A stretch of DNA of 64,000 nucleotides from a virus, in IMG/VR virus record IMGVR_UViG_3300029258_001212, positions 1-64,000 of that record; one strand, 5' to 3'. Below the pieces are notes generated by a model. That model was not told the DNA's origin, searched no databases, and was given only the letters and a program-made list of their open reading frames with translations. Within the stretch, counting starts at the first letter, position 1; each line of letters starts with the position of its first letter. Positions 1,031-53,428 of this stretch are shown piece by piece. A program made the translations under genes and the position numbers.

Positions 1031-1100
1031 TTGGCATGGCTGTTGCTTCTGCTTAATTAACCTTATCTCCCTCTGTGGGAGATAAGAGTCAAGAGGGTGT
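1031..1100 (+). repeat. Conserved ~70 bp element copy 1 (sigma54 -24/-12 motif, TTAATTAA, hairpin)
   Basis: TTGGCATGGCTGTTGCT (GG-N10-GC), TTAATTAA, perfect stem CTTATCTCCC-tctgt-GGGAGATAAG (1062-1086), AGTCAAGAGGGT. Confidence 0.9.
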
Positions 1101-1103
1101 CCG

Positions 1104-1385
1104 ATGGCAGACTTTGAAAAACTGGGTCGCGAGATCGGGCGTCTCGTGGAGACAAAACAAAAATCGTATGGCGATGCGTTCGGGCGAAGTGGCCAGGTGA
1201 TGCGTACCCTGTATCCGGAGGGTGTCTCTCCGGACCAGATGGACGATGCCCTGGCAGTGGTGCGCGTGGTGGACAAGCTGTTCCGGATTGCCACGGACAG
1301 GGACGCCCTGGGCGAGTCTCCCTGGAGAGATATTGCAGGGTATGGACTGCTCGGGTGGGCCCGGGTGGAAAGCGAGCGAAGATGA
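1104..1385 (+). CDS. DUF1599/nucleotide-modification-associated-domain-like small helical protein
   Basis: KQKSYGDAF...VRVVDKLFRI...ESPWRDIAGYGLL resembles the K-x-x-x-YG...DK-x-x-R...D-x-A-x-Y family pattern. Confidence 0.55.
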   Translation: MADFEKLGREIGRLVETKQKSYGDAFGRSGQVMRTLYPEGVSPDQMDDALAVVRVVDKLFRIATDRDALGESPWRDIAGYGLLGWARVESERR

Positions 1386-3421
1386 AGTTCAAGATCACGA
1401 TGAAGGATCCGGATGGCGTCTACGAGTGCGTGGAGGATGCTGTCACGATGAGCCTCAAGGGACTTGAGCTCTCCGAAGACGAGCGCGAGGCCGTCATGGA
1501 GAAGCGCAGGGAAGCCGTCATGGAGGCCATCAGCAAGTGGTTCGAATACGGTGAGTGCCTGAACGTGGAAGTGGACACGGACGCTGGAACCATCGAAGTG
1601 CTGTCCAGGTAGGACCAGGGCGCGAGCGATGATAGGATCGATCCATGGCAGCTCTACCTCCAAGCCGGACGGTGGACTCGAGCCCCACGGCGCCCCACGA
1701 CTACCAGGTGGTCAGCTACACGTGGAACAGCGAGCCGGAGAGCTCCACCAGTTCCAACACGGTGACGTTCTACGCGGACAGCACGGGGACCACCGTGGAG
1801 CCAGAGCTGGAGCTGCGCCTACCGCCACCACGGCCGCCCGTGTGGGACATGATGCCCCTGGCTCCTCACGTGGAGCCATTGCGCCGTGGGCGGGGGCCAA
1901 TGGACGCACGGCCGGCTATCTGGGCGTGCCGGCCGCGCCATGGGCTTTCCGGAGGGTGACGTGAGCTGGGTTGCCTTACGCAAGCTCCTCGAGGTGTTCA
2001 TTCTCGAGGCGATCATGCTCTACAGGGCATTTTCAAGGATCGGTGAAGTGGTGAGAAACGAGCTGGAGTACCGGCGCAACCGGAGGGCCTGGGAGCGGGC
2101 GATCCGCGATGGAGGGCCGTGGCCATGGTGATCCTCGAGTGCCCCAGGTGCGGCGAGCGGATGCGTCCGGTGGTGGCGGAAGGTCGCCTCGGGTTCCAGC
2201 GGGCGCTGGTGCCTGCGTTCCGGTGCGACTGCCATCGGGCGGACTACCCCACCGGGAATGAGGACGAGCTCCGCGGGTGGTGGGCGCTGGTGTTGGCGGA
2301 TGGTTCCCCGGCGGACGTGCCCCCTCGAGCTCGCCGGCCAGGTGGGTCGGTGGTGGTGGGCGAGGGGCAGCCGGATGGCTCCGTGGTGGGCAATTTCGAC
2401 ATGATGATCGGCTCCACGATCCCGGTGTGCCGGGTGTGCCACGATCTCCTCGAGGAGACCTTGAACGTCCAGGAGGACGGCTGGTATTGCCGGCGGTGCG
2501 ACCGGTACGAGATGGACCCGATGACTAGGGCGGAGATTCCTGGTTTCGGGGTGGGCAGTTCCGAGCACATGGGTGCGTGGCCGGTGCCGAAGGCCACCTT
2601 GGAGCTGCGGTGCCTGGACGGCGGCAAGGACAAGGACGATGGCAAAGAAACGTAAGCCACCGAAGGCGCCAAAGCGCTACGCTCCCCCGAGGAAGCCGTG
2701 GCGCAAGATGAAGTGCCCCAAGTGCGGCAAGGTGATCTGGCGCAAGCCCTACGTGTCGGACGCAGCCAAGTGCCATGACTGCGGCTTTCAGGGGAACCTG
2801 GTGCTGGCATGAGAGTGGAGCGGATGCCAACGCCACAGGAGCGTGAGAAGCGGCTCAAGACGAGCATCCCGCGAGCTCTCAAGGCGTGGGGTCTCCAGGT
2901 GGACCGTGAGCGACTGGCAGAGCCCCGTGCTTTTGACCGGGCGGTGGCTCGGCTGGCGCGGGTGATCCGGATGATTGAGGAGGGCAAGTCCCATGATTGA
3001 CCCTGTAGTGACTGGATTCTGGAAGCGCCTCCTGGTTGGCGCTGTGCTCCTGGCCGTGGTGGTCGGGATCCTACTGATGGTTTCTTCGATGATTGGAGGA
3101 TGACACGATGAGCGAAGAGAACGAGAAAGACCCGAACGCGGACGTGGAGAACCCATGGGAGGTGCCCGTAGGCCACATGGTGCCCACCATCACGGCAGCG
3201 TGCCCCCACTGCAAGGCTACCCTCGGGGTGCCGATCCAGATTCAGCCCGTGGGCGTGAACCAGGAGAACCAGGTGGTGGCCCTCGAGTCCGAGGAGCAGA
3301 TCAAGGCCCTCAAGGGGGTGCTCCTGGTGCTCGCCAGCCCGGTGCAGACTTTCATTTGCCCGCAGTGCAGCGGCCAGGGCGCGCCAGAGGACAATGAGCC
3401 CAAGCGGATCATCACGCTGTC

Positions 3422-3766
3422 ATGAAACGCACCATCATGACAAAGGAAGAGTGGGAAGCCCGGGGCACCGAGCTGTTCGGGGAGAACCAGATGAAGTGGC
3501 GATTCGTCTGCCCGAGCTGCGGCTACGTCCAGTCCGTGGAGGACTTCAAGGAGCTCCACGATCAAGGGGTAGACGTGCAGCCCAGCACGGCCTACTTCTC
3601 CTGCATCGGGCGCTGGAACGGTCACATGGACAACGATGCGTTCGGCGGCAAGTCCCCATGTAACTACGCGGGCGGGGGCCTACTGCGGATCAACCCCGTG
3701 CTGGTGAAGGATGGCGAGCGTGAGCACCAGGTGTTCGCATTCGATGAGGGACAACATGACGGCTGA
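3422..3766 (+). CDS. VVA0879-like CxxC phage protein
   Basis: LFGE...WRFVCPSCG..QS..DF...SCIGR...CNYAGGGL...P pattern. Confidence 0.6.
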   Translation: MKRTIMTKEEWEARGTELFGENQMKWRFVCPSCGYVQSVEDFKELHDQGVDVQPSTAYFSCIGRWNGHMDNDAFGGKSPCNYAGGGLLRINPVLVKDGEREHQVFAFDEGQHDG

Positions 3767-6501: not shown

Positions 6502-8343
6502 ATGAGCAAGAAGTGGAGCGGCAAGCAAGCTGAGCCGAGCTGCCCGGAGTGCAGGGTTGAGCTCGAGATCGCCGGACACCTGGACTGGTGGCTGTGCCCC
6601 AAGTGCGGCAAGGAGTGGCGCCAGGCGGGTATGCGCCTTGAGGAGATCCCTCCGCCCCAAGATCACGGTGGCATCACTAGCTTGGCCGACATGGTTCACC
6701 GGGAGCTCTCCGCGGCCCTGAACAGCCCCGAGCTCCAGGCGGCCAGGGAGCACGTTGGCCTCAAGCCCACAGTGCCCGATGAGGAGATCTGGGAGGCGAT
6801 GAACGGGGCGCGCGAGCTGGTGGGCCTCGGGCCCATGGAAGGAATCGCCTACGATCCGCTCAAGGACACCGAAAGCCGATCACACTGCTACCCGGAGCAG
6901 TGCCCAGTGGGGTGTGGGACAACGCTGGCGCGGGTGAGCGAGCCGGGCAAGGAGATCGTGTGGAGGTGCCCGGAGTGTACCTGGAGCGGGACGGACCAGG
7001 ATCGCCTCGAGTACCTGGGCTCCGAGGTAGAGGACGCCGTGGTGGAGCGGCTACACCACAGCGGTGCCCAGGTCGAAACGGTGCGACTGAGCAGATCGGG
7101 CGCCCAGGTGCCTATCCAGGAGCACGGGTACTGCCCGGAGTGCGGCACTGGGATGAACCGCGACAAGTCCCCGCGCGGCTGGGAGTGCAAGTGCGGGTGG
7201 ACCGGCGGGACGCCGCTGGCTTACCAGGTGAGCTTCCCTGTGGACGGGGTGGATTTCGGCATGAAGTACGCACCACAGGAAGACAAAGAGATCCCGGTGG
7301 CGCGAGTGGGCCTCGGGGACGATGGCACCGTGACCCTCGAGGCCAGCAAGATGACCCTGGGAAGCCCGGACGGCGAGCCAGTGGTCAATGTGCCCCTCGC
7401 CATGGACGTAGCCCAGGCGGCGCGCGTGGCCCAGGGCGGCAAGGGTGGCCTGGTGGGCCACGTCGTCTTGGGTGACGGCGTTGTGCTCCCGGTGATCATC
7501 CCGGGTATGGAGCTGGGCATCATGTCGCCCATGACCCCATACACGCCGCTCCAGGCGAGCATCGTGAAGGTGCGGGACGATGGGGGCGCAGACGTGAACT
7601 GGGAGTCAGTGGACCACCTGGTGGGCTACGCCAAGGACCATGACACACTGGAGCTCCACACCCATTCGCGGGGCGGTGAACCCTTGTCCTTTGAGGATGT
7701 GAAGGATGTGGCTGTCCGCATCGTGGAGGAGATGGACCAGGCCACCCGGGACAAGCTCTACCTCACCCACGATGGCCAGCCGTGCCCAGGTACGTGCGTG
7801 ACGCTGGCCACCGAGCTCGAGGATGCCCGGGCCGAGCTCAGGGAAGCCAAGTCGGGCAAGGTGGACTGCCAGGTGTGCGGGGACAACGGCTCCAACGGGC
7901 TCTGTCCAGCGTGTGGCCGGTTCCAGACGCCGGACACGGCTGCCCAGGTGCGCGAGCGGCTGGTCAAGACTGTTGGCCGGCTGTACGAGGAGAACGGGCG
8001 CCTCCGGGATCAGCTCTACCCACCACCCGGAAAGCCGGTGCTGGACGGCGAGCTGGACCCGTACACCCTGGTGGACAGCGTGCTACGGAACGGCTGCCCG
8101 GAGTGCGGCAAGCCGGTGATGATAGAGGCCCAGGTGCCGGAGGGTGGCATTGACTTCGCCTGGGCATTCACGTGCGCGGGCCTGGGGCGCGGGATCGGAA
8201 CGTGCGGCTGGTGGGCCATCAGCGTGGTGAGCCTGGCGGACGCGGCAAGGGTGGCTCTCCGCCACCCGGCGGCAACCAAGGAGGACAGCGATGATCAAGC
8301 AGGCGACGAGCATCATGATGCGCCTGGCCCAGATTCAGATTGA
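6502..8343 (+). CDS. Large multi-zinc-ribbon hypothetical protein
   Basis: Repeated CxxC pairs (CPEC/CPKC, CPVGC/CPEC, CPEC/CKC, CQVC/CPAC, CPEC) separated by unrelated segments. Confidence 0.7.
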   Translation: MSKKWSGKQAEPSCPECRVELEIAGHLDWWLCPKCGKEWRQAGMRLEEIPPPQDHGGITSLADMVHRELSAALNSPELQAAREHVGLKPTVPDEEIWEAMNGARELVGLGPMEGIAYDPLKDTESRSHCYPEQCPVGCGTTLARVSEPGKEIVWRCPECTWSGTDQDRLEYLGSEVEDAVVERLHHSGAQVETVRLSRSGAQVPIQEHGYCPECGTGMNRDKSPRGWECKCGWTGGTPLAYQVSFPVDGVDFGMKYAPQEDKEIPVARVGLGDDGTVTLEASKMTLGSPDGEPVVNVPLAMDVAQAARVAQGGKGGLVGHVVLGDGVVLPVIIPGMELGIMSPMTPYTPLQASIVKVRDDGGADVNWESVDHLVGYAKDHDTLELHTHSRGGEPLSFEDVKDVAVRIVEEMDQATRDKLYLTHDGQPCPGTCVTLATELEDARAELREAKSGKVDCQVCGDNGSNGLCPACGRFQTPDTAAQVRERLVKTVGRLYEENGRLRDQLYPPPGKPVLDGELDPYTLVDSVLRNGCPECGKPVMIEAQVPEGGIDFAWAFTCAGLGRGIGTCGWWAISVVSLADAARVALRHPAATKEDSDDQAGDEHHDAPGPDSD

Positions 8344-14100: not shown

Positions 14101-17100
14101 ACTGGAACTCACCAAGGACGTGCGATGCGTCTACAGCGGGGGCGGCCTATCAGCAACTCCGGAGCGCCCCATCCGCGTCCAGACTTCGATGCGTGGGGTC
14201 AACCTGCGTGACGGGACGGCCTACCTGGAGTGGGTAGGCTTCACGTTCGGTGTGAAGCTCCTCGAGCTGTTCACCGGCGGGGTGATGGAGGTAGACCCAG
14301 ACGACCCAAGCAAGCTCACCGAGCTCAAGCTGGCGCCCAAGGAGTAGACCCATGGACTGGAGAACCGAACAGCACCAGCACCTGATGGCGGCATTCAAGC
14401 GGCTCCAGGAGGACCACCCAGCGTTCCACATGGAGCTCAAGGTGCGCCTCAAGTCCGAGTACGCAGACCCAAGGCCATCGGGGCCAGACGAGAGGGATGC
14501 GGTGTTCCGTGTCCTGGGGCATGAGCGGCGCGGTGGGCGCATCAGGGTGCGAGTGCCAGACCAGAGCCGCATTGACCAGGTGGGCCTAGTCTACATGCGG
14601 TTCTATGATGGCTGGCGAACCAGGGACCACGTGCGGATCGATGGTATCGGAGACAAGGATGGGGTCTACCGGGTGTTGGGAGCTGGGCCTCACGACGAAC
14701 TTCTACTCGAGGCCATTGACTCCACCGAGCCCACCCATGGGGACACCCCATGAGCAACCCTGACTACAGCCAGGAGACGTGCCTCGGGTGCGTCCACTAC
14801 AGCCCCGCCTGGCCCGAGTGGGCCCGGGCGCGGGTGGACAATCAACTATACCAGCCGTGCCAGGCGCCCCTTCCAGAGCGCCCCAGCACAGACCTGGAAG
14901 ACGAGGCGTTCGATGAGGCCATGGTGGCCTGGGATGACCAGGTGGAGGCCATCAGCGGGGCAGGCCCGGGCTACAAGTGCGACCGGTTCCAGCCTACCCT
15001 CGAGTGCCGTGCGGTCCGGGCATCAGAAGAACGGAACGAAGCCCTCGCCGGGATCCAATGGGAACTCCAGGTCCGGCGTGAAGAGTACAGGTGAACCATG
15101 AGAGAGCCACTACACGATGCGGTGCTCGGGGCCTTGGAGCGGATGCAGGGCTACGCCAGGAACTGGGGCGATGGCCACCTGCCCAGCCGGAGAACGATCC
15201 AGGGCTGGGCCGCGTTGCTCAGGGCTGGCCTGGAGCAGTCAACGCTACAAGAGGACGTGAGGCGCCTCGAGGCCGAAAGGGACAGGGCGCGGGCCGCGAA
15301 CGAGCGAGACCGATCCCTGGTAGCCGAAGCGGTATCAGCGGCGCGCAAGGTGATCAAGTCCTACGGCTGGGCAACCGAGAGCAGGGGGCCGTACTCCTGG
15401 GATGATGACGAGTACATGGCAGAATTCGGGCGCTGCCTCACGGCGCTCGAGGCCCCACTTTCGCGCCTGGACAGCGTGATCAAGGACCTATCCGACTGTC
15501 CGCAGACGCAAGCCGAAGTGATCGCAGCTCGGCTCGGAGAACAACCATGAGACGACACCCCAAGCGAGCCCGGTGCTGCCCGAAGGGCGGGGACTACATC
15601 CGATGGATGACCGCGGGCGAAGCTGATGACGACGTGGACGGCTACTACATCTCCCTCCACTGCGGCTACCCGGACCCGGTGTACGAGCTGGTGACAGTGT
15701 GCCCGTTTTGCGGCGCTTCAGTGGACGTGAAGGACACCGGGACCGTGCCATGCGAGGCGTGTGCCAGCAAGGACACCTACACCGAGGTGACTGTCCCCAG
15801 GCGCGTCGGGAACGCCCAGCTCAAGGGCGGGACCCTGGTGGCGTGCCGAGAGTGCGGCTACGTGCGCCACAGGCCCTGGGGATGGCCGGCGCGGGCCGGG
15901 GAGGCAGGCCAGTGACACCTACTGACACCAGGCCCCCATGGGAGCCCCCGACCCCAGTGATGTGCTGTCCGCATTGCTTCAAGCCGGTGGTCTGGCGCAC
16001 GGACTTGGCCACCTATGAGACCATCCTGGAGTGCTCTGAGGAGCCAGAGGAACACATGGTGATCCGGTTCAGTGCAGACCTACCGCGGGCGGCTCGGGCG
16101 GAGCTGTACCACCGGTGGGAGCTCGAGATGGTCCGCGTGGGCATGGCCTGGCTGGACCACCTGGTGGCCGAGCGGCGGGGTGCGGAGGAAGGAGAACCAT
16201 GCGAGTAGACAAGCCAACCAGGGACGCCATCAGGGAGCGCATCACGAAGCTCCGGCCGGGGACCAGGAGAGTCCGCATCAGCTTGGACACCATGCTGGCC
16301 ATGCTGGACGACCTGGACGACTACCAGGAGCGTAGCCGGTTCATGCGGCGCGAGCCGCCGGACGGAAGGCTACGGCCGATGGTGATCCAGGGCCCAATGG
16401 ACGGGCGAGGCCGTGGGAGCAAACCCCTGGCCACAGTCAGCACCAGCAGTCCCCGGGGGCCTGGCCGGCGCGGGGCCGGGGACTAGAACCCATGTTCAGG
16501 AGTACATTCTGCCGAGCCATCCTGGGTGACTTCCAGTGGTACAGGCGCTGGTACGGCGGGGTGTGGGAGCTCTGGTGGGTGGACTATCCGGTCTGCACAG
16601 CCGTCTGGCACGACGTACCAGAGCCCACCGGGCGGGGGCCAAGGCCAACTCCACTATGCCGGGGGACCCCGGTGGTGGAAGACTACAGGAGATGACCCAT
16701 GGAATGGGTAGACGAATCATCGTACAGCCGGGGGCAGCGTGGCGAGGTGGAGCCCAGCGTCTGGGAGCTCAAGGGAGCGCCAGGAAGGCTGACCGTTCAC
16801 CGCTACATCGGCCTGGAAGGCTGGTTTGTGACGTGCCGGGACCTGGATCTGGAGCGCCATGAGCTCAGGGCGCGGGGCGCGGAGGAAGCGAAGCAGGAGG
16901 CCCTGGACCTGGCCCTGGACACCATCACCAGGAAGGCAGCGGCATGGCAGCGATGCCTGGCCAGCGGGTGACCCATGGGACGAATCTACGCCACCAGGGA
17001 GGATACGGGGGAGCGGGTGCTCCTCGAGCTCGAGTGCGATGGGTGCGGGGCGACTATCAAGCCCCACCCGGAGATCTCTTCCTCGGGCTGGGTGAAGCAC

Positions 17101-17174
17101 GCGGTGGGCACCACGTCGGTGGGCACCATGGAGTGGTACTACTGCCCGGAGTGCGCCCGGGCGCGGGGGCTCGG

Positions 17175-17465
17175 ATGAGCAACGGACACCAGCCCAAGGG
17201 GCCGTCCACCACGCCGCCAAAGGGATGGTGCCCCAACCCGGGTGGGACCGGCGTGCTATCGCCGGGGGACCAGGTGGCCAAGGGGAAGCGCCCCAGGAAG
17301 GTCCGGGTGGCCGTGACGCTGGACCCGGAGCTCCTCGAGCTGGTGGACCGCTACCAGGTGACCCTACAGCGGGAGCTGCCCCCAGGCGTCCAGACCAGCC
17401 GTTCCCAGGCGTTCGGTGTGCTCATCTACAAGGGCCTCGAGGCGGCCGGGGAAGAGACCCCATGA
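17175..17465 (+). CDS. Ribbon-helix-helix DNA-binding protein
   Basis: KVRVAVTLDPELLELVDRY...SRSQAF. Confidence 0.6.
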   Translation: MSNGHQPKGPSTTPPKGWCPNPGGTGVLSPGDQVAKGKRPRKVRVAVTLDPELLELVDRYQVTLQRELPPGVQTSRSQAFGVLIYKGLEAAGEETP

Positions 17466-28779: not shown

Positions 28780-28907
28780 TGCCATGGTGGGGATGGCTTC
28801 TCGCAGGGACGGCCACCGTGGCTGTGGTGGGCGCCATGGTATGGCTCCTGTGGGCCGGCGCCAGGCGCGCCATGGCTCGCATCGGAAGCAGCTTCAAGCG
28901 CCGCTAG
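28779..28907 (+). CDS. 42-aa single-TM membrane protein (not in ORF track)
   Basis: TGATG coupling; MPWWGWLLAGTATVAVVGAMVWLLWAGARRAMARIGSSFKRR. Confidence 0.6.
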   Translation: MPWWGWLLAGTATVAVVGAMVWLLWAGARRAMARIGSSFKRR

Positions 28908-28914: not shown

Positions 28915-28985
28915 GACACCCTCTTGACTCTTACTCTCCAAAGGGAGAGATAAGGTTAATTAAGAAGAAGCAACAGGCGTGCCAA
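28915..28985 (-). repeat. Conserved ~70 bp element copy 2 (reverse orientation)
   Basis: Reverse complement TTGGCACGCCTGTTGCTTCTTCTTAATTAACCTTATCTCTCCCTTTGGAGAGTAAGAGTCAAGAGGGTGTCC. Confidence 0.9.
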
Positions 28986-29076
28986 AACCGGGGGGGTCCA
29001 AAAATCCGCGTGACTTGTCAGGTGTCCGCCATGTAGGATATGCAGGACACTATGCAGAACACACCAGGAGGCGACA

Positions 29077-32245: not shown

Positions 32246-32608
32246 ATGAGCTGGTTTCTCGAGACATACCGCGAGCTCTCTGGCCTGATGGAGGCCACGG
32301 CGTTCCGCGGCCTGAGCAAGGCAGAGCTCAAGGAGCTCATGGCCGAGCTCAAGTCCAAGTTCGGTCCGCTCCGGGCCAAGTATTGGACCACACCGAAGCA
32401 CGCCACCGGACAGGTAACCCTGAAGCCCTACAGGCGGGACCAGGACGCCTGGGGCGAAGACCTGGACCGATGGGTGCGCCTGGTGGACCATCTCATCGCC
32501 TGGGGCGCATTCAGCCCCACGGTGAGCCTCGAGAAGCAACGCGGCGAGCCTGGCGTGTGGGGTAACCAGTTCCCCCTCGCTGGATTGACGTTCTATAGGA
32601 GAGCCTGA
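32246..32608 (+). CDS. Putative cargo protein
   Basis: MSWFLETYRELSGLME|A leader. Confidence 0.7.
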   Translation: MSWFLETYRELSGLMEATAFRGLSKAELKELMAELKSKFGPLRAKYWTTPKHATGQVTLKPYRRDQDAWGEDLDRWVRLVDHLIAWGAFSPTVSLEKQRGEPGVWGNQFPLAGLTFYRRA

Positions 32609-33519
32609 TGCGGAAAAATCATCCCTATCGTGCCACCATGCTGGCCATCAGCCGGCGGATGCAGCGCAGCGGCTACAGCGTGGCCTACACGAAGCATGGG
32701 GACCATGAGCTCGGGGTGCCGGACCCACCGGCCGGGGCGGCGTGGATCTCGTTCACCGAGAGCGAGGACTGCCAGGGCTTTGCCCATGCCCTCGGGTTGC
32801 TCGGGCTCGAGGAGTCCGTGAGCAAAAGCGGCCGGACATGCTTCGAGCTCCCGGACGGCGGCGCCGCGTGCGTGGTCGAGTCCGGTGACGGTACAGGGTA
32901 TCTGTACCTGAGCGAGCTGGGCCCGGTGGAGGAGACCAGGGCGGCCAAGCTGGGCACCCTCCTAGAGACCATCCGCGCGCCGCGCGTCAGCGAGCCAGAT
33001 CCGCTCACCGAGGCCCGCGCGAGCCGGCCAGGGATGACCCAATTCCGCGATCTGACCCTCCGCAAAAAGGTGGTGGACCAGATCATGAAGGCCGTCATGC
33101 AGGACATTCCGATCATCCTCACCGGCCAGCCCGGGTCCGGGCGGATCATGATCGCCCGACGTATTGCCCAGATGGTGAAGGGGCCCCTCCGCGCTCCGCA
33201 CTACACGGTGAGCATGAAGGGCCTGACCGGGACGGTGCGGAACGGCCGTTACGTGGAAGGCGATCTCACCATGGCCAACCAGGGGGTGCTCCTGTTGGAC
33301 GAGGGGGCGGAGATGCGGCGGCCGGCCCTCGAGGCCATCGGCCAGGCGGTGCGCTTGAAGCAGGTGCAGCTCCCTGGGATGCAGGAGCCCCGCCAGGCGG
33401 ACTTCCACCTGGTGATGACGGCTCCGGATGCCTCCGGGGCCAAGCGCGCATTGAAGTTCATGGGGCTCACCAAGGTGGCCACCATTCACATTGCCAAGGG
33501 TGACTTGGCGGTCAAGTAG
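32608..33519 (+). CDS. Putative cargo polyprotein with degenerate ComM/YifB-like AAA+ module
   Basis: LGTLLETIR...PLTE|A then GQPGSGRI...PLRAPHYTVS...GDLTMANQGVLLLDE. Confidence 0.65.
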   Translation: MRKNHPYRATMLAISRRMQRSGYSVAYTKHGDHELGVPDPPAGAAWISFTESEDCQGFAHALGLLGLEESVSKSGRTCFELPDGGAACVVESGDGTGYLYLSELGPVEETRAAKLGTLLETIRAPRVSEPDPLTEARASRPGMTQFRDLTLRKKVVDQIMKAVMQDIPIILTGQPGSGRIMIARRIAQMVKGPLRAPHYTVSMKGLTGTVRNGRYVEGDLTMANQGVLLLDEGAEMRRPALEAIGQAVRLKQVQLPGMQEPRQADFHLVMTAPDASGAKRALKFMGLTKVATIHIAKGDLAVK

Positions 33520-38366: not shown

Positions 38367-38435
38367 TTGGCACGGCTGTTGCTTCTTCTTAATTAACCTT
38401 ATCTCTCTCTGTTAGAGGAGAAGAGTCTTGAGGGT
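38367..38435 (+). repeat. Conserved ~70 bp element copy 3
   Basis: TTGGCACGGCTGTTGCTTCTTCTTAATTAACCTTATCTCTCTCTGTTAGAGGAGAAGAGTCTTGAGGGT (most diverged 3' half). Confidence 0.9.
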
Positions 38436-41091: not shown

Positions 41092-42804
41092 ATGGCGAAC
41101 CTGGGCAATCGGATCGTCAACTACGTTCGGGGGATTTTCAGCCGCGACACCGAGGAGCGGATTGAGGCAGCCGGAGGGGTGAACGTCGGGGACTTCCCGA
41201 TGGATCCATTCGGAAACCTGCAAGTCCAGCACATCGGGCAGAACGTGGTCCAGGACGCCCTGATGGTGTCCAATGCTCTGATGGCGCGGATGATCGACTA
41301 CGAGCGCATGGATGAGTATCCGGACTGCAATGCCGCGTTGAACATCTACGCGGACGATGCAACGGTTCCAGATCCGAGCACAAACCATGTGATGTGGTCC
41401 GTGTGTCGGGACGAGCAGATCCGCGGGATGCTCGACACCATGCTACACAGGCGGCTCCACGTGGACGATGAAGCGTGGGAAGCGATCCGGATGCTGGTGA
41501 AGTACGGAAACGACTTCGAGGAGATCCTGGTCAACTCCCGCGGTGTCCAAGGACTCAACTTTCTTCCAGCGCCTACGTGCCGACGCCTCGAGGGGAAACA
41601 GGGCGAGCTCAAGGGCTTCGTGCAGAGCTTCAGGGGCAACTTCACGGTGAACCCAGGCCAGCTCCAGGGGATGCAGTTCCGCCAGGGCGTGGGGCGTGAG
41701 CCACGCAGCGGCGTGGCCCTCTTCGAGCCGTGGCGTGTGGTTCACATGCGGCTCCGGAGCAACCGGCGCCGGGCGATGTACGGGATCGGGATCCTCGAGG
41801 CGTGCAGGTGGGTCTGGAAGCGCCTCATTCTCCTCGAGGACGCGGCGCTGATCAGCCGGCTGGCTCGAGCTCCCAGTCGCTTCGCGTTCTACGTGGACGT
41901 GGGCAAGCTGTCCACCGAGAACGCGGAGAAGTACCTGGACGAGATGCGCCGGAAGCTCAAGAAAAAGAAGTTCGTGAACCCACGGACCGGCCAGCTCGAT
42001 CTACGATTCAACCCTCTGTCCACGGATGAGGATTTCTTCCTCCCGGTGCGCGACAGCCGGGAGGTGGTCCGAGCGGACGTGCTCAACACGCCCACCTGGA
42101 CGGGCGTGGAAGATGTGGCCTACTTCCGCGACAAGCTCCACGCCAGTCTGATGATCCCGAAGGCGTACCTGGGCTACGATGAGAATCTCCCGAGCCGCGC
42201 TACGCTCTCCCAGGAGGACGTGCGGTTCGCCCGGACGGTGCTCCGGGTCCAGCGCGAGTACAAGGCGGGGATGCGGAAGGTGGCCAAGGTACACCTCGCC
42301 AGTCAGGGGATCGATCCGGCCTATGTGGACTTCGATCTGGCCATGACGGTGCCGAGCTCCATCTTCGAGCTCGCACGCCTCGAGATCCAGAACACCCGAG
42401 CCACGTTCGCTGCCCAGATGGGTGAGCTCGTTTCGAAGCACTGGCTTCTCGCCAACGTGTTCAACTTCTCGGACGCTGAGATCGAAAAAGTGATGGTGCA
42501 GCGGCGCGAGGAGCTCACCGAGGAAATGAAGATCCAGCAAGGGCAATTCGAATCCAGGGCCCTCCCCGTCAGAAGCCCGAACCGAATGCTCACGGACAAC
42601 CGTTCCGCGCCAGCGCGCACGCGCGAGCTGTACGGCGTGGAGCGGGATCTGTTCGCAGGAAGCCGCGAAGCGGAGAAACGCCTCGAGGGACGACTGGACC
42701 AGATGCTCACCGAGAACAGGCGTTTCGGAATGCAGCTCGCGCAGATCCAATCCTTCCTGGGCGAGGTGCGCGGAGCCATTCGCACCTCCCAGATGCCTCG
42801 CTGA
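41092..42804 (+). CDS. Portal protein (T4 gp20-like)
   Basis: YERMDEYPDCNAALNIYADDA; LILLEDAALISRLARAPSRFAFYVDVGKL; EDFFLPVR; DVAYFRDKL...IP; EDVRFARTVLRVQ. Confidence 0.92.
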   Translation: MANLGNRIVNYVRGIFSRDTEERIEAAGGVNVGDFPMDPFGNLQVQHIGQNVVQDALMVSNALMARMIDYERMDEYPDCNAALNIYADDATVPDPSTNHVMWSVCRDEQIRGMLDTMLHRRLHVDDEAWEAIRMLVKYGNDFEEILVNSRGVQGLNFLPAPTCRRLEGKQGELKGFVQSFRGNFTVNPGQLQGMQFRQGVGREPRSGVALFEPWRVVHMRLRSNRRRAMYGIGILEACRWVWKRLILLEDAALISRLARAPSRFAFYVDVGKLSTENAEKYLDEMRRKLKKKKFVNPRTGQLDLRFNPLSTDEDFFLPVRDSREVVRADVLNTPTWTGVEDVAYFRDKLHASLMIPKAYLGYDENLPSRATLSQEDVRFARTVLRVQREYKAGMRKVAKVHLASQGIDPAYVDFDLAMTVPSSIFELARLEIQNTRATFAAQMGELVSKHWLLANVFNFSDAEIEKVMVQRREELTEEMKIQQGQFESRALPVRSPNRMLTDNRSAPARTRELYGVERDLFAGSREAEKRLEGRLDQMLTENRRFGMQLAQIQSFLGEVRGAIRTSQMPR

Positions 42805-42863
42805 TTCGAATCAGATCCTACACAACACTTATATAAGTGTTCGACCCTCCTTGTTTTTTTCCC

Positions 42864-42893
42864 TTGACCCGTGTAGAACCGTGTATTGATAAT
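42864..42893 (+). promoter_or_regulatory. Possible sigma70-type promoter for head genes
   Basis: TTGACC-N18-GATAAT preceded by a T-tract in AT-rich intergenic DNA. Confidence 0.4.
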
Positions 42894-43014
42894 GACAAGG
42901 ATTCAGAGGCGATCCGATGCGAAAAGGTGATCTCTCCACAGAAGTGAGACTCTCCTGGTATTTCACCGGATCTCTCTGCCCTGAGCCCACCGTTACTGGG
43001 AGTGGACGGCCACG

Positions 43015-43947
43015 ATGAGCGGACTGATTCCGGCCAATGTGCTCGCAGGAGTGACCCGCGGATCTCTCGAGGATCACGTGGGTCGAGTGATCCAGGCGGT
43101 AGAGGACAGCCACGCAAGATTCGAATCCGAGACCGGGCAGGACCTGAACGTGATTGCGACGTTCAATGAGCATGTGGTGGTGGCCAACGGGGACGGCAAC
43201 GTCTACCGCGCCAGCTACCAGCCGGCCGGTGACGGGTTTTCCATCACGAAGGTGGAGCCAGTGGAGCTCCCGGTGATTCGCGGGCGCCAGGATGGCAGGC
43301 GCTTCGTGGAGCGCACTGCATCGGAGGCGGTGGAGGCTCTGGTGGCCGGGGACTTCTCATCGGCCCGTGATCAGATCCGCACCTTGATCGAAGCGGCTCC
43401 CATGGTGGCCCCGGCGGACCAGCTCCGCGAGCTCCGCGAGCACCTCTCCGGGATGTTCGATCCGGATCGCCCATGGCGCGCGTTCTACGCGGAGGACCAT
43501 GAGCGCATTCAGCGCCTGGTGTGGGGCACCACCGGCTCCGCCCTTTCCTACACCCCTCAACCCCGCTACCAGCCCCTGTACCGTGACGGTCTCCTCGAGG
43601 ACGCCAGCGAGTACGCTTCCGCCGTGGAGGCGGACGTGGGCGTGATGGCCGAGCGCCTGGAGAAGCTCTGGGAGCAGACCACCGAGGCGTGGGGCGAGTA
43701 CCAATCGACTGGTGCCTTCAAGGCTTCGGGCATCGCCCGGCCGGCCGAGCATTTCGAGACCATCGCTTCCGATTACCTGGTGGAGCTCAAAGCTCTCTGC
43801 CACCTGATGAGCGAGGCGGCCAAGGACAACGATCCGGATACTGTGGCGGCGCGCGGCTGGCTGTTTGACCAGGTGGCGCGGCAGTATCCCCAGGTGGAAG
43901 TGACGGCCCGGCTAGTGCGTCGGGTGGCCACTGAATTTGTGAGCTAA
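43015..43947 (+). CDS. Head-module hypothetical protein
   Basis: Lies between portal and protease; acidic, helical. Confidence 0.7.
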   Translation: MSGLIPANVLAGVTRGSLEDHVGRVIQAVEDSHARFESETGQDLNVIATFNEHVVVANGDGNVYRASYQPAGDGFSITKVEPVELPVIRGRQDGRRFVERTASEAVEALVAGDFSSARDQIRTLIEAAPMVAPADQLRELREHLSGMFDPDRPWRAFYAEDHERIQRLVWGTTGSALSYTPQPRYQPLYRDGLLEDASEYASAVEADVGVMAERLEKLWEQTTEAWGEYQSTGAFKASGIARPAEHFETIASDYLVELKALCHLMSEAAKDNDPDTVAARGWLFDQVARQYPQVEVTARLVRRVATEFVS

Positions 43948-45075: not shown

Positions 45076-46644
45076 GTGGACCAGGTACTCACAGACTGCC
45101 AGCTATTCCGATTCGAGCTGGTGGAGGACCGGGAGGGCTCCGGGGGCATGGTAGCCCGCGGGCCCTTTGCCCGGGCAGGAGTGCCGACGGCCAACGGCCG
45201 GGTGTACTCCGGCAAGCTCTGGGAGCGAGAGCTGTCCCGGCTCCAGGACAAGATCAAGACGAGCAGCTTGTTCGGACTCCTGGACCACCCACAGGACGGC
45301 AAGACCACGCTCAAGGAAGCGTCTCACCTGATCACCAAGCTGACCTTCGATGGCACCAACGTCATCGGGGAGATGCGAGTGCTCGACACCCCCAACGGGC
45401 GCATCCTGAAGTCCATCATCGAAAGCGGAGGCGTTGTGGGCGTCTCCAGCCGTGGCGTGGGGACCACCCGCAAGAACCAACAGGGCATGAGCGAGGTTCA
45501 AGACGACTATCGGCTCCTGTCCTTTGACGCCGTGGCGGACCCGGCGAACGCTACGTCTTGGCCGAAGTTCACCACCGAGGCCGACGATCCGGAGGAGAAC
45601 ATGCCCCTCACCCTCGAGCAACTGAAGGAAACGCACCCCGAGCTGGTGCAGATGATCCAGGCGGAGGCCGTGGCAGACGTGGAGCCGGCCCCGGCGGCGC
45701 CCGACACCGAGGACATGCGCGAGAAGCTCTTGTCCATGGTGCAGGAGCAGCGCGCGGAGGTGGAGAGCCAGGTGCGGAGCGAGCTCCTGAGCGACCCGTC
45801 CGTGGGCGGCTCGCGGCTCGCCCTCGAGGGGGTGATCAAGCTCCTCCGGCCCCTGATGCTCACCGAGGATCAGCACGCCGTCCTGGAGAACAAGGAAGAG
45901 GAGCTGGCGGACACCCGGGCCAAGCTCGAGGAGGCACAGGAGCAGATCTCCCAGCTCGAGGCGGCCGTGGAGGAGCTGGTGGGCATCACCGAGGAGCTCT
46001 CCTGTCGCTACTACGCCGAGCGCGCCCTGGGTACACTCGAGGAGGTGGACACGAAGGAGCACATCCTCGGGATGCTCGGGGACCTGTCCCGCTTCGGATC
46101 CATCGAAGAGTTCAAGGAGGCCCTCGCTTCCACCGTGGAGTCGGTGCTCACCGAGACCACGCGCCAGGAGGAGGAGAACGCAGAGCTCGCGGCCATGAAG
46201 GCCGAGAACGAGAAGCTCCGCAAGGCCCTGGGCAAGTCTGTGGAGCTCGGCAAGGCCCTGGGCACCAAGGCGTACCTCGAGCAGCGCCTGAACGCTCATC
46301 CCCAGGCCAGCGCCATCCGCGAGCAAGCGGAGAACGTGCGTCTGGAGGGCAAGCGTGCCGTGGATCGCCTGATCGAATCCTTCGAGGCGGCCAACCCCTT
46401 GTCGGACGAGTTCGATCAGATCTCGTCCGAGTTCGGCGGCGGCCTGTCCCACCTCACCGAGGGGGACGAGGATCCGCAGGACTTCACCGAGGGGTTCACG
46501 GGCGCCATGCACATGCCGGAGGGTGGCGGCGGCCAGGTGCCCCTCACCGAGGACGGCTACGATCTGTTCGGTGTGGGCCAGAAAGAGCTCCGGAAGCTCT
46601 GCGGCCTGTCCGAGGGACGCGACGACGACAAGGGGCCCTACTAG
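45076..46644 (+). CDS. Prohead protease (T4 gp21-like) fused to coiled-coil scaffold
   Basis: NGRVY, GLLDHP, ASHLI, LDTPNGRIL, GVSSRGVG, FDAVADPA; C-terminal acidic coiled coil. Confidence 0.9.
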   Translation: MDQVLTDCQLFRFELVEDREGSGGMVARGPFARAGVPTANGRVYSGKLWERELSRLQDKIKTSSLFGLLDHPQDGKTTLKEASHLITKLTFDGTNVIGEMRVLDTPNGRILKSIIESGGVVGVSSRGVGTTRKNQQGMSEVQDDYRLLSFDAVADPANATSWPKFTTEADDPEENMPLTLEQLKETHPELVQMIQAEAVADVEPAPAAPDTEDMREKLLSMVQEQRAEVESQVRSELLSDPSVGGSRLALEGVIKLLRPLMLTEDQHAVLENKEEELADTRAKLEEAQEQISQLEAAVEELVGITEELSCRYYAERALGTLEEVDTKEHILGMLGDLSRFGSIEEFKEALASTVESVLTETTRQEEENAELAAMKAENEKLRKALGKSVELGKALGTKAYLEQRLNAHPQASAIREQAENVRLEGKRAVDRLIESFEAANPLSDEFDQISSEFGGGLSHLTEGDEDPQDFTEGFTGAMHMPEGGGGQVPLTEDGYDLFGVGQKELRKLCGLSEGRDDDKGPY

Positions 46645-46705
46645 GGGATCTCTTCCAGGAAAACCAACGCGCAATGAGCGCGTGAACCGGATTTAGGAGG
46701 CAGAA

Positions 46706-48205
46706 ATGCAGGCAAGAGACATGGTGAAGGCCCCGGGCGGCTTCGGAGGCCAGGACCGGGTGGACGAGATCCTCAAGCAGAAGTGGGCGTGGCTCCTCGA
46801 CGGAATCGAGGAGGACTGGGATCGGCGCAACCTGGCGCGCCTCTTCGAGAACCAGATGAACCACCTCCGCGACGAGGTGCGGAAGTCCGGGATCATCAGC
46901 GAAGCCACCACCAAGGCGGCCGTGCCGGACTACGTGAAGTTCATCTTCCCGCTGGTCCGCCGCGTCTGGGCGAGCCTGTTCGCCAACGGCCTGGTGAGCG
47001 TCCAGCCGATGAGCGCCCCCATCGGCGGGATCTTCTTCTTCGAGTACAAGTACGGCACCACCAAGGGATCGGTCACCGCGGGTCAGAACATGATCCAGAA
47101 CTTCGACCGGTTCTACAGCTCGGAGCGCGTGTACCACGAGCTGGTGGACACCGGAGACGGTGCCACGGCCAACTACACCGGGACCCTGGACTGGTTCCCG
47201 GTGGTGCCGAAGGACAACTTCGGCCGCGCGGGCCTCGAGTTCACCACGGTGGACGTGTCCGACAACGTGCTCCGGATCTACGATGCGGACGGATCCGGCA
47301 CCCTGGCCGGTGACACGGGCGGCGCGTCCACGGTCACCTACGCCAGCGGCGACTTCAACATCACGTTCTCCGCGAACGTGAAGAACCTCACCCCCATCTA
47401 CGCCAACTACTGGTTCAGCATGGAGGCGGCCAGTGCCAACGTGCCGGAGGTGAACGTCGAGATCTCCCTCGAGCCCGTCCAGGCGTGGAGCCGCAAGCTC
47501 AAGGCGCTGTGGAGCTCGGAGGCGGCCGACGACATGCGCGCCATGCTCGGGCTCGACATCGAATCCGAGCTGGTGGGCGGCCTGGCCAGCGAGATCGGGC
47601 TGGAGATCGACCGCGAGATCATCCAGGACCTGTACGTGGCGGCGGACGCCGGCACCAACAAGGACACCTTCGACGCGACGGTGCCCCCCGGCCGGAGCCC
47701 GGTGGAGCACTACTCCGGGATCCTCACCAAGCTGGACAAGATCGCCACGGAGATCCACACCCGCACCAAGCGCGGTCCGGGCAACTTCATCGTGTGCGCG
47801 CCCGACGTGTCCACGGTGATCTCGGCCCTGAGCCGCCACGGCGACTTCAAGGGCGTGTTCTCCCAGACCGATCCCGTCCAGGGCATCGGCACCGGCGGGC
47901 GCCCCGGCTTCCCGCTCCCGAACGCCCCGCAGGGCTACGGGATCTTCGAGGCCGGCACGCTCCAGAACCGCTGGCGCGTGATCGTGGATCCGTACTTCGA
48001 GTCGGGCAAGGCCGTGGTCGGGCTCAAGGGGAGCACCTTCCTCGACAGCGGCTACGCCTACGCCCCCTACGTGGGGCTCCAGATCACCAGCACCTGGCTG
48101 GATCCGGGCAACTTCCAGGCCCGCAAGGGCCTCCGGACCCGGTACGCCACGAAGCTGATGAACAGCAACTTCTACGGCGCCCTCGAGGTGAACAACACCC
48201 CGTAG
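46706..48205 (+). CDS. Major capsid protein (T4 gp23-like)
   Basis: LFENQ, PLVRRV, VSVQPMSAPIG, SRKLKALWS.EAADD, EIDREII, GNFIV, YAPYV, TRY; predicted maturation site IISE|A. Confidence 0.95.
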   Translation: MQARDMVKAPGGFGGQDRVDEILKQKWAWLLDGIEEDWDRRNLARLFENQMNHLRDEVRKSGIISEATTKAAVPDYVKFIFPLVRRVWASLFANGLVSVQPMSAPIGGIFFFEYKYGTTKGSVTAGQNMIQNFDRFYSSERVYHELVDTGDGATANYTGTLDWFPVVPKDNFGRAGLEFTTVDVSDNVLRIYDADGSGTLAGDTGGASTVTYASGDFNITFSANVKNLTPIYANYWFSMEAASANVPEVNVEISLEPVQAWSRKLKALWSSEAADDMRAMLGLDIESELVGGLASEIGLEIDREIIQDLYVAADAGTNKDTFDATVPPGRSPVEHYSGILTKLDKIATEIHTRTKRGPGNFIVCAPDVSTVISALSRHGDFKGVFSQTDPVQGIGTGGRPGFPLPNAPQGYGIFEAGTLQNRWRVIVDPYFESGKAVVGLKGSTFLDSGYAYAPYVGLQITSTWLDPGNFQARKGLRTRYATKLMNSNFYGALEVNNTP

Positions 48206-48221
48206 CGTGAGATCGTGTCAA

Positions 48222-48272: not shown

Positions 48273-48311
48273 GACTTCAGGTTTCAGGCTACTGCGGAGG
48301 AGGATTCCAAG

Positions 48312-48872: not shown

Positions 48873-48946
48873 CATCTGGCGGAACACGCCGGTGCCCGGC
48901 CTACCTCAGATTGGACATTCGATGAGAACGTAGGGAGGAGTATGCC

Positions 48947-49585
48947 ATGGCCACCCGAGCCAACGCACGGAAGTACAAACGCAACCCCGAGTACCCCGCG
49001 GAGCGGTTTAAGCTCAACGGGGTGCTGTTCACCGATGAGACCGTGGTGGAGGGAGACCACTGGGAGAAGTACACCACCCAGCTTTTCCCCAACATCCCCC
49101 CGCAGCTCGTCTACGCGCCCTCGGGTGACCAGGTGACCACCGGGGGCACGGCCCGGGCCGAGCGCCCCCAGCGCGACGTGGAGCCCCCCAAAGGCACCAC
49201 CACGGCAGCCTTCAAGCGCAGCGAGGAGGAGCCGGCGGCCGGGGACGGCAAGAAGACCCTGGTAGAGACCGGCTCCAAACCCAAGCCGGCTTCGAAGCAG
49301 GCCATCGTTCCCCCGGAACCGGAACCGGAACCGGAGCCCGAGCCCGAGCCCGAAGAGGAGCTCGAGGACGATGTGGAGCCGGAGGACCTGACGGTGATCA
49401 ATGGCGTGGGCGACAGCCGGGCCGAGTCCCTGGCGGAGGCAGGCTTCCCCACGGTGCAATCCGTGGCCAACGCGGACCCGGCGGTGCTCCTCCATGGTGT
49501 GCGTGAGACCGGGGCTCGCATGAACCTCGCCACGGCTCGCACCATCGTGCGCCAGGCCAAGGTGGCGGCCGGTCGGAAGGAATAA
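48947..49585 (+). CDS. Helix-hairpin-helix domain protein with (PE)n linker
   Basis: DLTVINGVGDSRAESLAEAGFPTVQSVANAD. Confidence 0.7.
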   Translation: MATRANARKYKRNPEYPAERFKLNGVLFTDETVVEGDHWEKYTTQLFPNIPPQLVYAPSGDQVTTGGTARAERPQRDVEPPKGTTTAAFKRSEEEPAAGDGKKTLVETGSKPKPASKQAIVPPEPEPEPEPEPEPEEELEDDVEPEDLTVINGVGDSRAESLAEAGFPTVQSVANADPAVLLHGVRETGARMNLATARTIVRQAKVAAGRKE

Positions 49586-49604
49586 AGCAAGAGGGGCAGC
49601 GAAT

Positions 49605-49672
49605 ACCCTCTTGATTCTTATCTCTGAAGGATAGAGATAAGGTTAATTAAGAAGAAGCAACACCCGTGCCAA
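49605..49672 (-). repeat. Conserved ~70 bp element copy 4 (reverse orientation)
   Basis: Reverse complement TTGGCACGGGTGTTGCTTCTTCTTAATTAACCTTATCTCTATCCTTCAGAGATAAGAATCAAGAGGGT. Confidence 0.9.
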
Positions 49673-49685
49673 AGTGGAGGCACCC

Positions 49686-51242: not shown

Positions 51243-51253
51243 AGGAGACCCAC

Positions 51254-51568: not shown

Positions 51569-51569
51569 C

Positions 51570-51977: not shown

Positions 51978-52897
51978 TGCAGCTCCGCGAGCGTCTACAC
52001 GCGGCCGGCGCCTTGGTGACCGAAGCCAAGGCGCGGTTCATCGGCGGGAAGTACAGGGCCACGCTCAGGAAAGACCAGTACGATCCGGCAGACTACCGCT
52101 ACAGCCCTCCCCCGGAGGACATTGACTCGCTTCTCAAGCGGGCCGAAAGGCACCTCACCAGGTGGGGCTCCTGGGGAGATCTCAAGTACGGCTACGATGG
52201 GCCGATCCAGGACGATGGAAAGGCGTGGGAGACCCACGGCAAGGCCGAGCGCATGATCGACTCTTGGGCCCGGGCGGCGAAGTACCGGCGCGAGAGCTCA
52301 CCGAACGGTGTCGTGTGGGTGCGGGGTGCCACGGATCCCGTGATTCGGCTCACCAGGGAGCACTCGGACGAGACCGCGTGGCGCGACGATGAGCGCGCCT
52401 ACCGGATGTACCTGCGTGACGGTGGAGAGCCCGGCTACTACGCGCGGATGACTCTCCTCATGTACGATAGCCCCGAGGGGTCTCGCCTCCTAAGCCACAT
52501 CAGTGACCGACAGGACAAGACGGTCATGGACTGGGAAACGGACGCCAGCAAGCTCCGCGACTGGTTCAAGAAGCTCAGGATGCGTCACCAGAAGCGCGTG
52601 TCTATTTCGGGCATCCGGGACAAGGCCCATCGGTTCAACGCTGACATGGATACGGCGCAGCTCCAGAAGCTCCTGGGAGTGGTAACGCGGTTCGCCAGGC
52701 GCTACCCCCAGCTTCAGGACGCCACCGAGCAACAGCCAGGTGAGCGCGAATTCGTCAAGGCCGTGTTCAGGCGGTGGGAGATGCCAGACCGTTCGGCTGG
52801 CATCGTGGTGCGCGCGGACGAGTACAACCCCAAGAACAAGCAACGGCGGCGCAAGGATCACAACGTGACCATTCTCCTGTGGCCGTCTCTGGGATGA
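51977..52897 (+). CDS. Putative cargo protein
   Basis: MQLRERLHAAGALVTE|AKA leader. Confidence 0.65.
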   Translation: MQLRERLHAAGALVTEAKARFIGGKYRATLRKDQYDPADYRYSPPPEDIDSLLKRAERHLTRWGSWGDLKYGYDGPIQDDGKAWETHGKAERMIDSWARAAKYRRESSPNGVVWVRGATDPVIRLTREHSDETAWRDDERAYRMYLRDGGEPGYYARMTLLMYDSPEGSRLLSHISDRQDKTVMDWETDASKLRDWFKKLRMRHQKRVSISGIRDKAHRFNADMDTAQLQKLLGVVTRFARRYPQLQDATEQQPGEREFVKAVFRRWEMPDRSAGIVVRADEYNPKNKQRRRKDHNVTILLWPSLG

Positions 52898-52902
52898 GGA
52901 CC

Positions 52903-53358
52903 ATGAACGACACCATTGACAGAATTCGCCAAGTGGGAGCTCTCACCGAGGAGGCCGAGAACCTGTTTGAGGGGCGCCCGAAGCCCGGCCCGATGTGCCG
53001 GAAGATCGTCAAGGGTCTCCTGGCGGCCGGCTTCACCAAGTCCAAGTCCCGGATGGGGATGGGCGCCACCGGCGCCACCTACACCAACCCCCAGGGGGAC
53101 ATTTTCTCCAAGGATGTGCAGGTGCCACAGGATCCGGTTTCGGTGCTCGGCGGCTCGCGTCCACAGGCGGACCCGAAGCGCGTCCAGGCGGCCGAGAAAA
53201 CCGTCCGGAAGATCGCCGGCCAGGTGGGCGTCACCGAGAAACAGAACATCGGCAACCGGGTGGCCCTGAGCGAGCCAGGCGGCCACCCCAAGGTCTGGTA
53301 TCACACCACGCCGGGCGGCACGTTCTACGTGGACGTGGACTACACCACCGACTACTAG
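52903..53358 (+). CDS. Putative cargo protein
   Basis: MNDTIDRIRQVGALTEEAENLFE|G leader. Confidence 0.65.
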   Translation: MNDTIDRIRQVGALTEEAENLFEGRPKPGPMCRKIVKGLLAAGFTKSKSRMGMGATGATYTNPQGDIFSKDVQVPQDPVSVLGGSRPQADPKRVQAAEKTVRKIAGQVGVTEKQNIGNRVALSEPGGHPKVWYHTTPGGTFYVDVDYTTDY

Positions 53359-53360
53359 AC

Positions 53361-53428
53361 TTGGCACGGGTGTTGCTTCTGCTTAATTAACCTTATCTCT
53401 CCCTTTGGAGAGTAAGAGTCAAGAGGGT
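53361..53428 (+). repeat. Conserved ~70 bp element copy 5
   Basis: TTGGCACGGGTGTTGCTTCTGCTTAATTAACCTTATCTCTCCCTTTGGAGAGTAAGAGTCAAGAGGGT. Confidence 0.9.

Follow-up and report, generated by a model that had tools for sequence, protein, structure and literature searches.

A repeated intergenic cassette resembling a host-type sigma-54 promoter, present in both orientations in the genome of a distant T4-like phage

The window analysed here, a 64,000-nucleotide stretch comprising positions 1–64,000 of IMGVR_UViG_3300029258_001212, carries five dispersed copies of a 68–69 bp intergenic cassette whose sequence resembles a bacterial sigma-54 (RpoN) promoter. The full virus record (153,540 bp, 64% G+C, 144-bp terminal repeats) comes from an uncultured, very distant T4-like myovirus, and no cultured phage has a capsid protein more than about 34% identical to its own; codon-position G+C indicates ~175 genes, nearly all on the + strand. 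Within the window the copies occupy 1031–1098 (+), 28918–28985 (−), 38367–38435 (+), 49605–49672 (−) and 53361–53428 (+), as an earlier note on this DNA had described, save that it began the second copy at 28915, 3 nt off. That note had also suggested searching the rest of the genome and its relatives, and further copies exist in the genome and in one close relative. There are 12 in the whole genome, four in the sense orientation on the + strand (1031, 38367, 53361, 139349) and eight antisense on the − strand (28985, 49672, 74074, 81913, 90591, 98485, 117206, 125863), and the same 12 positions and orientations recur in a sister genome, IMGVR_UViG_3300028920_000034, whose flanking sequence is ~91% identical (~9% divergence). 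Chance does not produce such a set: the 20-nt head of the cassette, allowing up to three mismatches, has five matches in the window versus 0.01 expected from shuffles, and an 18-nt stretch of AT box plus CCTTATCTC has five exact matches, again versus 0.01 expected.

All five window copies are intergenic and start or end 1–19 nt from the stop codon of a + strand gene, in agreement with the placement within ~20 nt of a stop that had been reported. The four sense copies begin 1–10 nt past a stop codon. The first (1031..1098, +), which combines TGGCAT-N5-TTGCT boxes, a TTAATTAA box and a perfect 10-bp dyad, follows the stop at 1029 of an upstream + strand open reading frame (ORF) and ends in the tail AAGAGGGT 6 nt before the ATG at 1104. 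The ORF that begins there (1104..1385, +, 93 aa) uses the cassette tail as its ribosome-binding site and matches only a weak PHROGs family, its function not known. The copy at 139349, which heads a block from 139.4 kb, is arranged in the same way, the tails of these two copies lying 6–7 nt upstream of an ATG (ORFs at 1104 and 139424). The other two sense copies precede the head and tail blocks, respectively: that at 38367..38435 (+) lies 10 nt past the stop at 38356 and heads the block leading to the portal, prohead protease and major capsid genes, and that at 53361..53428 (+) lies 2 nt past the stop at 53358 and heads the tail block, of which the first ORF (53443..54147, +, 234 aa) starts at ATG 53443. 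The ORFs behind these two, at 38475 and 53443, have ribosome sites of their own.

The antisense copies occupy stop-to-start gaps, and no minus-strand ORFs were found behind them. The copy at 28918..28985 (−) has its tail end 11 nt past the TAG (28904–28906) of a small + strand ORF, and the minus strand beyond it reads ATG-GGC-TAG only, with no gene; minus-strand genes at 28.5–28.9 kb were considered and rejected, the region having small + strand ORFs instead. The copy at 49605..49672 (−) fills the gap from a stop at 49585 to the next + strand gene (GGAGG 49676–49680, ATG 49686). Three blocks, at 1.1–28.9, 38.4–49.6 and 53.4–74.0 kb, have a sense copy at their left and an antisense copy at their right. 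The earlier description of the layout missed the main puzzle, namely that two of the five copies (eight of the 12 genome-wide) point against genes that lie almost entirely on the + strand.

An alignment of 24 copies, 12 each from this genome and its sister, reads TTGGCAC - N5 - TTGCTTCT(G/T)CTTAATTAACCTTATCTC - variable loop and purine arm - AAGAGTC(AA/TT)GAGGGT. The cassette can accordingly be divided into a −24 box (TTGGCAC), a free 5-nt spacer, a −12 box (TTGCTTCT), an AT-rich box (CTTAATTAA), the pyrimidine-rich CCTTATCTC and the purine tail AAGAGGGT; CCTTATCTC is invariant, opens an imperfect dyad as its 5′ arm and is the predicted first transcribed stretch. Of the tail proposed in the earlier note, AGTCAAGAGGGT does exist, but 10 of the 24 copies read AGTCTTGAG(G/T)GT. 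Sigma-54 promoters are defined by −24 and −12 boxes, with GG and GC, and require an AAA+ activator with a GAFTGA loop, the sites of which usually lie 80–150 bp upstream; transcription is strictly activator-gated and starts ~12 nt after the GC. All five window copies fit TGGCA(C/T)-N5-TTGCT, as had been claimed (four consensus matches are exact and the fifth has one mismatch), and every one of the 12 genome matches to TGGCA[CT]-N5-TTGC[AT] falls within a cassette copy. GG and GC lie exactly 10 bp apart within TGGCAC-N5-TTGCW in 12 of 12 copies here, and the sister has 11 exact copies and one with a single mismatch. The earlier note had treated conservation of GG and GC in additional copies as critical, and both are fixed in all 24. 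Indeed, columns G3, G4, C5, A6 and T14–T20 (GG, CA, TGCTTCT) do not vary in the alignment, columns 8–12 (N5) are free, taking seven forms among 12 copies, and the only variable patch of the first 39 nt coincides exactly with the N positions of the consensus. At least 10 fixed bases stand at the exact GG-N10-GC spacing, together with extended TGGCACG and TTGCT; the deviations are TGGCAT at 1031 and, in the sister, CTGGCAC in copy 125863 and GTGC in copy 49672. With the GC taken as −12, the predicted +1 falls inside TTAATTAA, as proposed, and the conserved span runs from about −26 to +12, a length that suits a polymerase footprint and not an RNA structure.

A MotA-box or sigma-70 reading of the sense strand was rejected on inspection, the distance to any TAnnnT being unfit, and the T4 late promoter TATAAATA was not found in the genome. 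There are also no other repeated non-coding motifs, the remaining repeated words encoding Glu-Leu-Glu linkers.

Comparison with the sister genome divides the cassette into parts that diverge to different degrees. The core (boxes, AT box and CCTTATCTC) differs between orthologues at 7 of 397 positions (1.8%; 2.3% in sense and 1.5% in antisense copies). The N5 spacer differs at 10 of 60 positions overall, at 0 of 20 in sense copies and at 25% in antisense copies, and the purine tail at 12 of 180 overall, at 0 of 60 in sense and 10% in antisense copies, so that spacer and tail together show 0 changes in 80 positions of the sense copies. From this block-wise divergence it follows that the core is kept in both orientations and that spacer and tail are kept only where a gene follows. 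The spacer itself reads GG[CG]TG at four of four sense loci versus one of eight antisense loci (Fisher p = 0.01).

The earlier note had placed a covarying hairpin directly after the start site. Covariation did not survive the comparison: across the 24 copies 77.8% of cells pair, versus 77.9% in shuffles, and one cell in 230 is compensatory. Pyrimidine and purine tracts can pair in many registers. Drift is limited to the loop and the purine-rich 3′ arm, and folding energies lie mostly within ~1 standard deviation of dinucleotide shuffles (z-scores mostly near −1). The dyad does, on the other hand, have a preferred strand. Folded as the reverse-complement RNA it reaches a mean of −11.4 vs −9.0 kcal/mol (Wilcoxon p = 5e-5 for the 24 copies, 0.002 for the 14 distinct ones). 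The C–A mismatches of the sigma-54-sense RNA become G–U on the other strand. Antisense copies show the largest gaps, and in them it is the gene strand that folds better. On the + strand most inverted copies give a hairpin of −11 to −13 kcal/mol followed by UUAAUUAA, which has only four U in eight. Canonical terminators are very few on that strand. The minus strand carries a terminator-like hairpin with a T-rich tail (49586..49608, −) behind the copy at 49605–49672 only, which would give an antisense RNA of ~60–85 nt and is replaced in the sister; none was found behind the other eleven copies.

What might read such a site? In the phage genome we found no Sigma54 domains, no sigma-70 regions 2 or 4, no gp55-type sigma (seven-sequence profile, no filters) and no T7-type polymerase, the control of this last search being silent. 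The phage-encoded enhancer-binding protein that the earlier note had proposed looking for was likewise not found in the genome: the only match to the sigma-54-activator family (PF00158) is a 303-aa ComM/Mg-chelatase-like AAA+ protein at 32608–33519, rejected as an activator on account of a Walker A motif that reads GSGR (Lys to Arg) and a missing GAFTGA loop. Because no sigma factor, RNA polymerase or activator is recognized in the phage, the host sigma-54 holoenzyme is the most economical reader. A small regulator of another kind may be encoded at 17175–17465, the C-terminal part of ORF 16944–17465, where a ribbon-helix-helix-like sequence (RKVRVAVTLDPELLELVDRY...) matches PHROG 4738, ‘transcriptional repressor’ (E = 1e-7), with no Pfam match; we regard it as a candidate small phage regulator.

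Taken together, the fixed boxes and spacing, the free spacer, the AT box at the predicted site of melting and initiation, the conservation of the core in two genomes and the lack of a recognizable phage reader support a host RpoN promoter. The phage module built on RpoN that the earlier note envisaged is therefore retained as regards the host sigma-54 promoter, which rests on sequence pattern, and given up as regards the structured-RNA family; for a sequestering of RpoN, which that note also raised, the evidence tips neither way. We propose, with belief and doubt about evenly matched, that the cassette is a host-type sigma-54 promoter used in two orientations, as an expression signal where it is sense and as a block boundary where it is inverted; that some part of the phage programme runs on the host sigma-54 route is probable. 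Under this proposal, the host sigma-54 holoenzyme would bind the 12 sites and an activator that acts without a nearby enhancer, either a host protein acting from solution or an unrecognized phage protein, would fire them, with DNA melting and RNA starting at the CTTAATTAA box. The four sense copies would supply promoter, leader and ribosome-binding site for the accessory, head, tail and 139.4-kb blocks. The eight inverted copies would mark block boundaries in the very gaps that separate one stop codon from the following start, where the gene-strand dyad and UUAAUUAA might form a 3′ hairpin on the upstream mRNA, acting as a leaky terminator, stabilizer or processing site, and where the inward-facing promoter could give rise to convergent or antisense transcripts, or at the least be occupied by holoenzyme. 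The surroundings of the copy at 28918–28985 are instructive in this respect. The 90-nt non-coding stretch beside it (28986..29076, +) is 99% identical in the sister, versus ~90% around it, and holds TTGTCA-N18-TATGCA and a GGAGG ribosome site ahead of the ATG at 29077; it is probably the own sigma-70-type promoter of the 29–38 kb block. Given the order of stop codon, inverted cassette, conserved promoter stretch and next gene, the copy stands where a terminator would be expected.

A more specific version, which we offer as doubtful though worth stating, is that a lytic T4-like phage that lost or never had a gp55-type late sigma relies on host sigma-54 to express its head, tail and other blocks, by means of a bifunctional cassette that acts as a promoter when read one way and as a transcript-end or insulator signal when read the other, and that is driven by a novel enhancer-independent activator that might be phage-encoded or delivered with the virion.

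Several observations weigh against the proposed two-way promoter. Such promoters need an activator, and there is no true one among the phage proteins; nor was a shared upstream activator motif found within 300 nt of the copies. The host would have to encode rpoN; we sought clues to its identity in tRNAs, of which the phage genome has none, in cultured relatives, none of which is close, and in the endolysin, which lacks a close homologue in bacterial genomes. Were all to fire together, the sigma-54 promoters that converge on one another around the head and tail blocks would collide. As for a boundary function, the hairpin with UUAAUUAA is not a canonical terminator and was not flagged in a terminator scan of the stretch spanning the copies at 49605 and 53361; the strand asymmetry of the dyad rests on about six independent sequence variants and is no more than suggestive; and in E. 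coli the bound sigma-54 holoenzyme did not act as a roadblock (PMC4591121). Gene conversion between copies appears to be frequent and could keep the antisense copies intact without selection. Finally, the cassette is inessential to the clade, being absent from relatives at 51–72% capsid identity.

The lack of both an activator gene and an enhancer site also counts towards the strongest alternative, in which an unrecognized phage-encoded factor, a novel sigma-like protein or DNA-binding regulator, reads the site and the likeness to sigma-54 is coincidental or convergent. Most of the ~175 proteins have no family match, and the whole of −26 to +12 is conserved, beyond what sigma-54 needs. Coincidence would nevertheless have to account for at least 10 fixed bases at the exact GG-N10-GC spacing, for the added TGGCACG and TTGCT, and for a lone variable patch that matches the consensus N positions, and no sigma-like or polymerase domain was detected. 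We consider this explanation unlikely, if the least so of the alternatives.

If the holoenzyme binds and does nothing further, the cassettes might be decoys, holding host sigma-54 holoenzyme in its inactive closed form so as to titrate it from host stress responses or to organize the phage DNA. Sigma-54 holoenzyme sits stably on promoters with no transcription taking place (PMC4591121). Once replication had multiplied the 12 sites of each genome, they would exceed the supply of a scarce sigma factor. Orientation would be irrelevant, which fits four sense and eight antisense copies, and neither an activator nor an enhancer was found. A decoy, however, has no need of an AT box and a +1 to +12 region conserved as well as the boxes, nor of the frozen spacer and ribosome-site tail of the sense copies that feed ORFs; the copies stand at gene junctions only rather than anywhere in the genome, and the E. 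coli data speak against roadblock effects of bound holoenzyme (PMC4591121). We regard static occupancy as improbable.

The exchange seen between copies suggests another account, to which we assign the same low standing as to the decoys. Here the cassette would be self-propagating or maintained by recombination, as are the promoter-early stem-loops of T4-type phages, with functional promoters in the sense copies only. The inverted copies would arise as by-products that gene conversion holds uniform and that do no harm at gene junctions. Orthologous copies have indeed swapped hairpin/tail variants and spacers, for example at 98485, 49672 and 74074; the distribution is lineage-specific; antisense tails and spacers evolve at or above the background rate; and two of the ~35 breakpoints between the two genomes adjoin a copy (49561–49634 and 125362–125793). 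The last figure compares with ~0.6 expected, a weak enrichment, and the identity of all 12 positions and orientations in both genomes indicates no recent movement. There are also no terminal inverted repeats or target duplications, antisense dyad variants keep their gene-strand pairing, and an antisense core at 1.5% divergence beside drifting tails means that conversion is not simple copying of the whole unit.

A role for the inverted copies of a different sort would follow if the opposite strand, which reads TTGACT-N21/22-TAAGGT, were a MerR-style, long-spacer sigma-70 promoter facing the sigma-54 one, with the dyad as its operator and the eight antisense copies as true promoters of the downstream + strand genes. 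The hexamers are there, TAAGGT is invariant in 22 of 24 copies, and start codons lie 1–13 nt beyond the cassette in several inverted copies. The spacer, at a variable 21–23 nt, exceeds the 19–20 nt of MerR-type promoters; the −35 element is TTGACT in 14 of 24 copies, AAGACT in nine and TTGATT in one, and is no better kept in inverted copies; a sigma-70 scan of the stretch with the copies at 49605 and 53361, the only cassette-bearing stretch scanned, gave nothing; the leader would have no ribosome site at a usable distance; and the invariant GG and GC boxes are left unexplained. We consider such a dual promoter very improbable. Least credible of all is the family of small structured non-coding RNAs raised in the earlier note, for which a dyad in most copies and the ~60–85-nt RNA predicted behind copy 49672 can be cited, against which stand absent covariation and folding no better than in shuffles, eleven copies without a terminator and a single one unconserved in the sister, a 3′ arm that is the least conserved part of the cassette, and no Rfam family at or above gathering score in the window (best sub-threshold match 17.8 bits vs 37 required).

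The remainder of the genome conforms to a T4-like plan. Pfam identifies, on the + strand, a gp20-type portal (41092–42804), a prohead protease (45076–46644), a gp23-type major capsid protein (46706–48205) and the tail sheath (61164–63353), with tube and tape measure beyond the window. By PHROGs, tube, tape measure and baseplate proteins lie at 64–98 kb, and helicases, primase, a UvsX-like recombinase, topoisomerase, ParB and endolysin at 107–153 kb. Behind the sense copy at 139349, a 687-aa ORF (140996–143059) has no Pfam, PHROG or PDB sequence match, its identity as the large terminase was not confirmed, and Terminase_6N was absent from a whole-genome search. Beside copy 28918–28985, the small + strand ORF at 28783–28906 encodes ~40 aa, hydrophobic in their core, and differs between the two genomes far more than adjacent ORFs do, a sign of rapid divergence. 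In the head block, the gene at 43015 is immediately preceded by an AT-rich gap (42805–43014) with the palindrome CACTTATATAAGTG, a T7 run and TTGACC-N18-GATAAT, which may be an internal sigma-70 promoter or operator. Outside the window, 133936–135474 and 129535–129805 (1.5 kb and 0.27 kb) hold no ORFs and include those patches where the genome is richest in AT; an origin or early control region may lie there.

In a scan of IMG/VR and metagenomes, this genome and its sister were the only carriers of the cassette; the other matches were chance ones in AT-rich phages and one unrelated bacterial contig. The cassette was not found in relatives whose capsid protein is 51–72% identical, and one of these, IMGVR_UViG_3300036715_001368 (159 kb, capsid 51% identical), instead carries 18 copies of an unrelated 14-bp palindrome, CGCAAG-NNN-TTGCG, mostly within genes. 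The bacterial match, at 1123–1153 of an ERZ795054 contig (a 50% G+C bacterium with multihaem cytochromes), shares 26 of 31 positions with the cassette from TGGCAC to TTAACC, faces the 3′ end of a convergent M30 peptidase gene, and is probably a chance match. An unrelated viral contig, IMGVR_UViG_3300025121_000154, has three tandem TTGGCACG-N4-TTGCTT sites, 26 bp apart, at 7357–7426.

A full-text literature search found no paper on natural sigma-54 promoters in a phage genome. Were the two-way sigma-54 promoter correct, the placing of morphogenesis genes behind it would make phage development depend on a signalling ATPase of the host or on a novel activator of the phage. Such an arrangement would be a novel mode of timing the expression of phage genes, and a novel point at which a host could exert control or defence. 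With the inverted copies one could test whether a single short sequence acts as a promoter on one strand and as a boundary on the opposite one, and the 68-bp modular cassette, if active, might be of use as an orthogonal expression part.

The closest counterparts of the cassette in sequence are the −24/−12 promoters of bacterial sigma-54, of which glnAp2 and pspA are examples. It shares with them TGGCAC-N5-TTGCT, GG and GC ten bases apart, a free spacer and an AT-rich start region. It differs in occurring as 12 near-identical copies in a lytic-type T4-like phage, in having no upstream activator site and no phage activator gene that we could find, in a conserved block that reaches +12, and in the two thirds of copies that point against all neighbouring genes. 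For antisense copies there are parallels in P22 Pant/Psar and the T4 ‘anti-late’ RNA, in which sigma-70 promoters at single loci point back into the upstream transcription unit. There, as may be the case here, antisense RNA or polymerase collision can limit expression; the difference is that one cassette type would serve both roles genome-wide in this phage. Sigma-54 sites in both sense and antisense orientation also have a precedent in the E. coli sigma-54 map, in which 62% of bound sites are intragenic and some of the intergenic sites face away from genes (PMC4591121). Among phage elements, the nearest are the promoter-early stem-loops (PeSLs) of T4-type phages, which pair strong sigma-70 early promoters with proven terminators (Arbiol et al. 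2010, PMC2839356), are co-oriented with genes in hyperplastic regions and mark indel breakpoints (PMC2839356). Like PeSLs, the cassette is a short, repeated, intergenic combination of promoter and stem-loop in a T4-like genome, with recombination between copies. Unlike them, it shows no clear breakpoint enrichment and no sigma-70 promoter in the stretch spanning the copies at 49605 and 53361; its promoter is of the sigma-54 type, its stem-loop follows the start site and lacks a U tract, eight of its 12 copies are inverted, and most lie between late structural and replication blocks.

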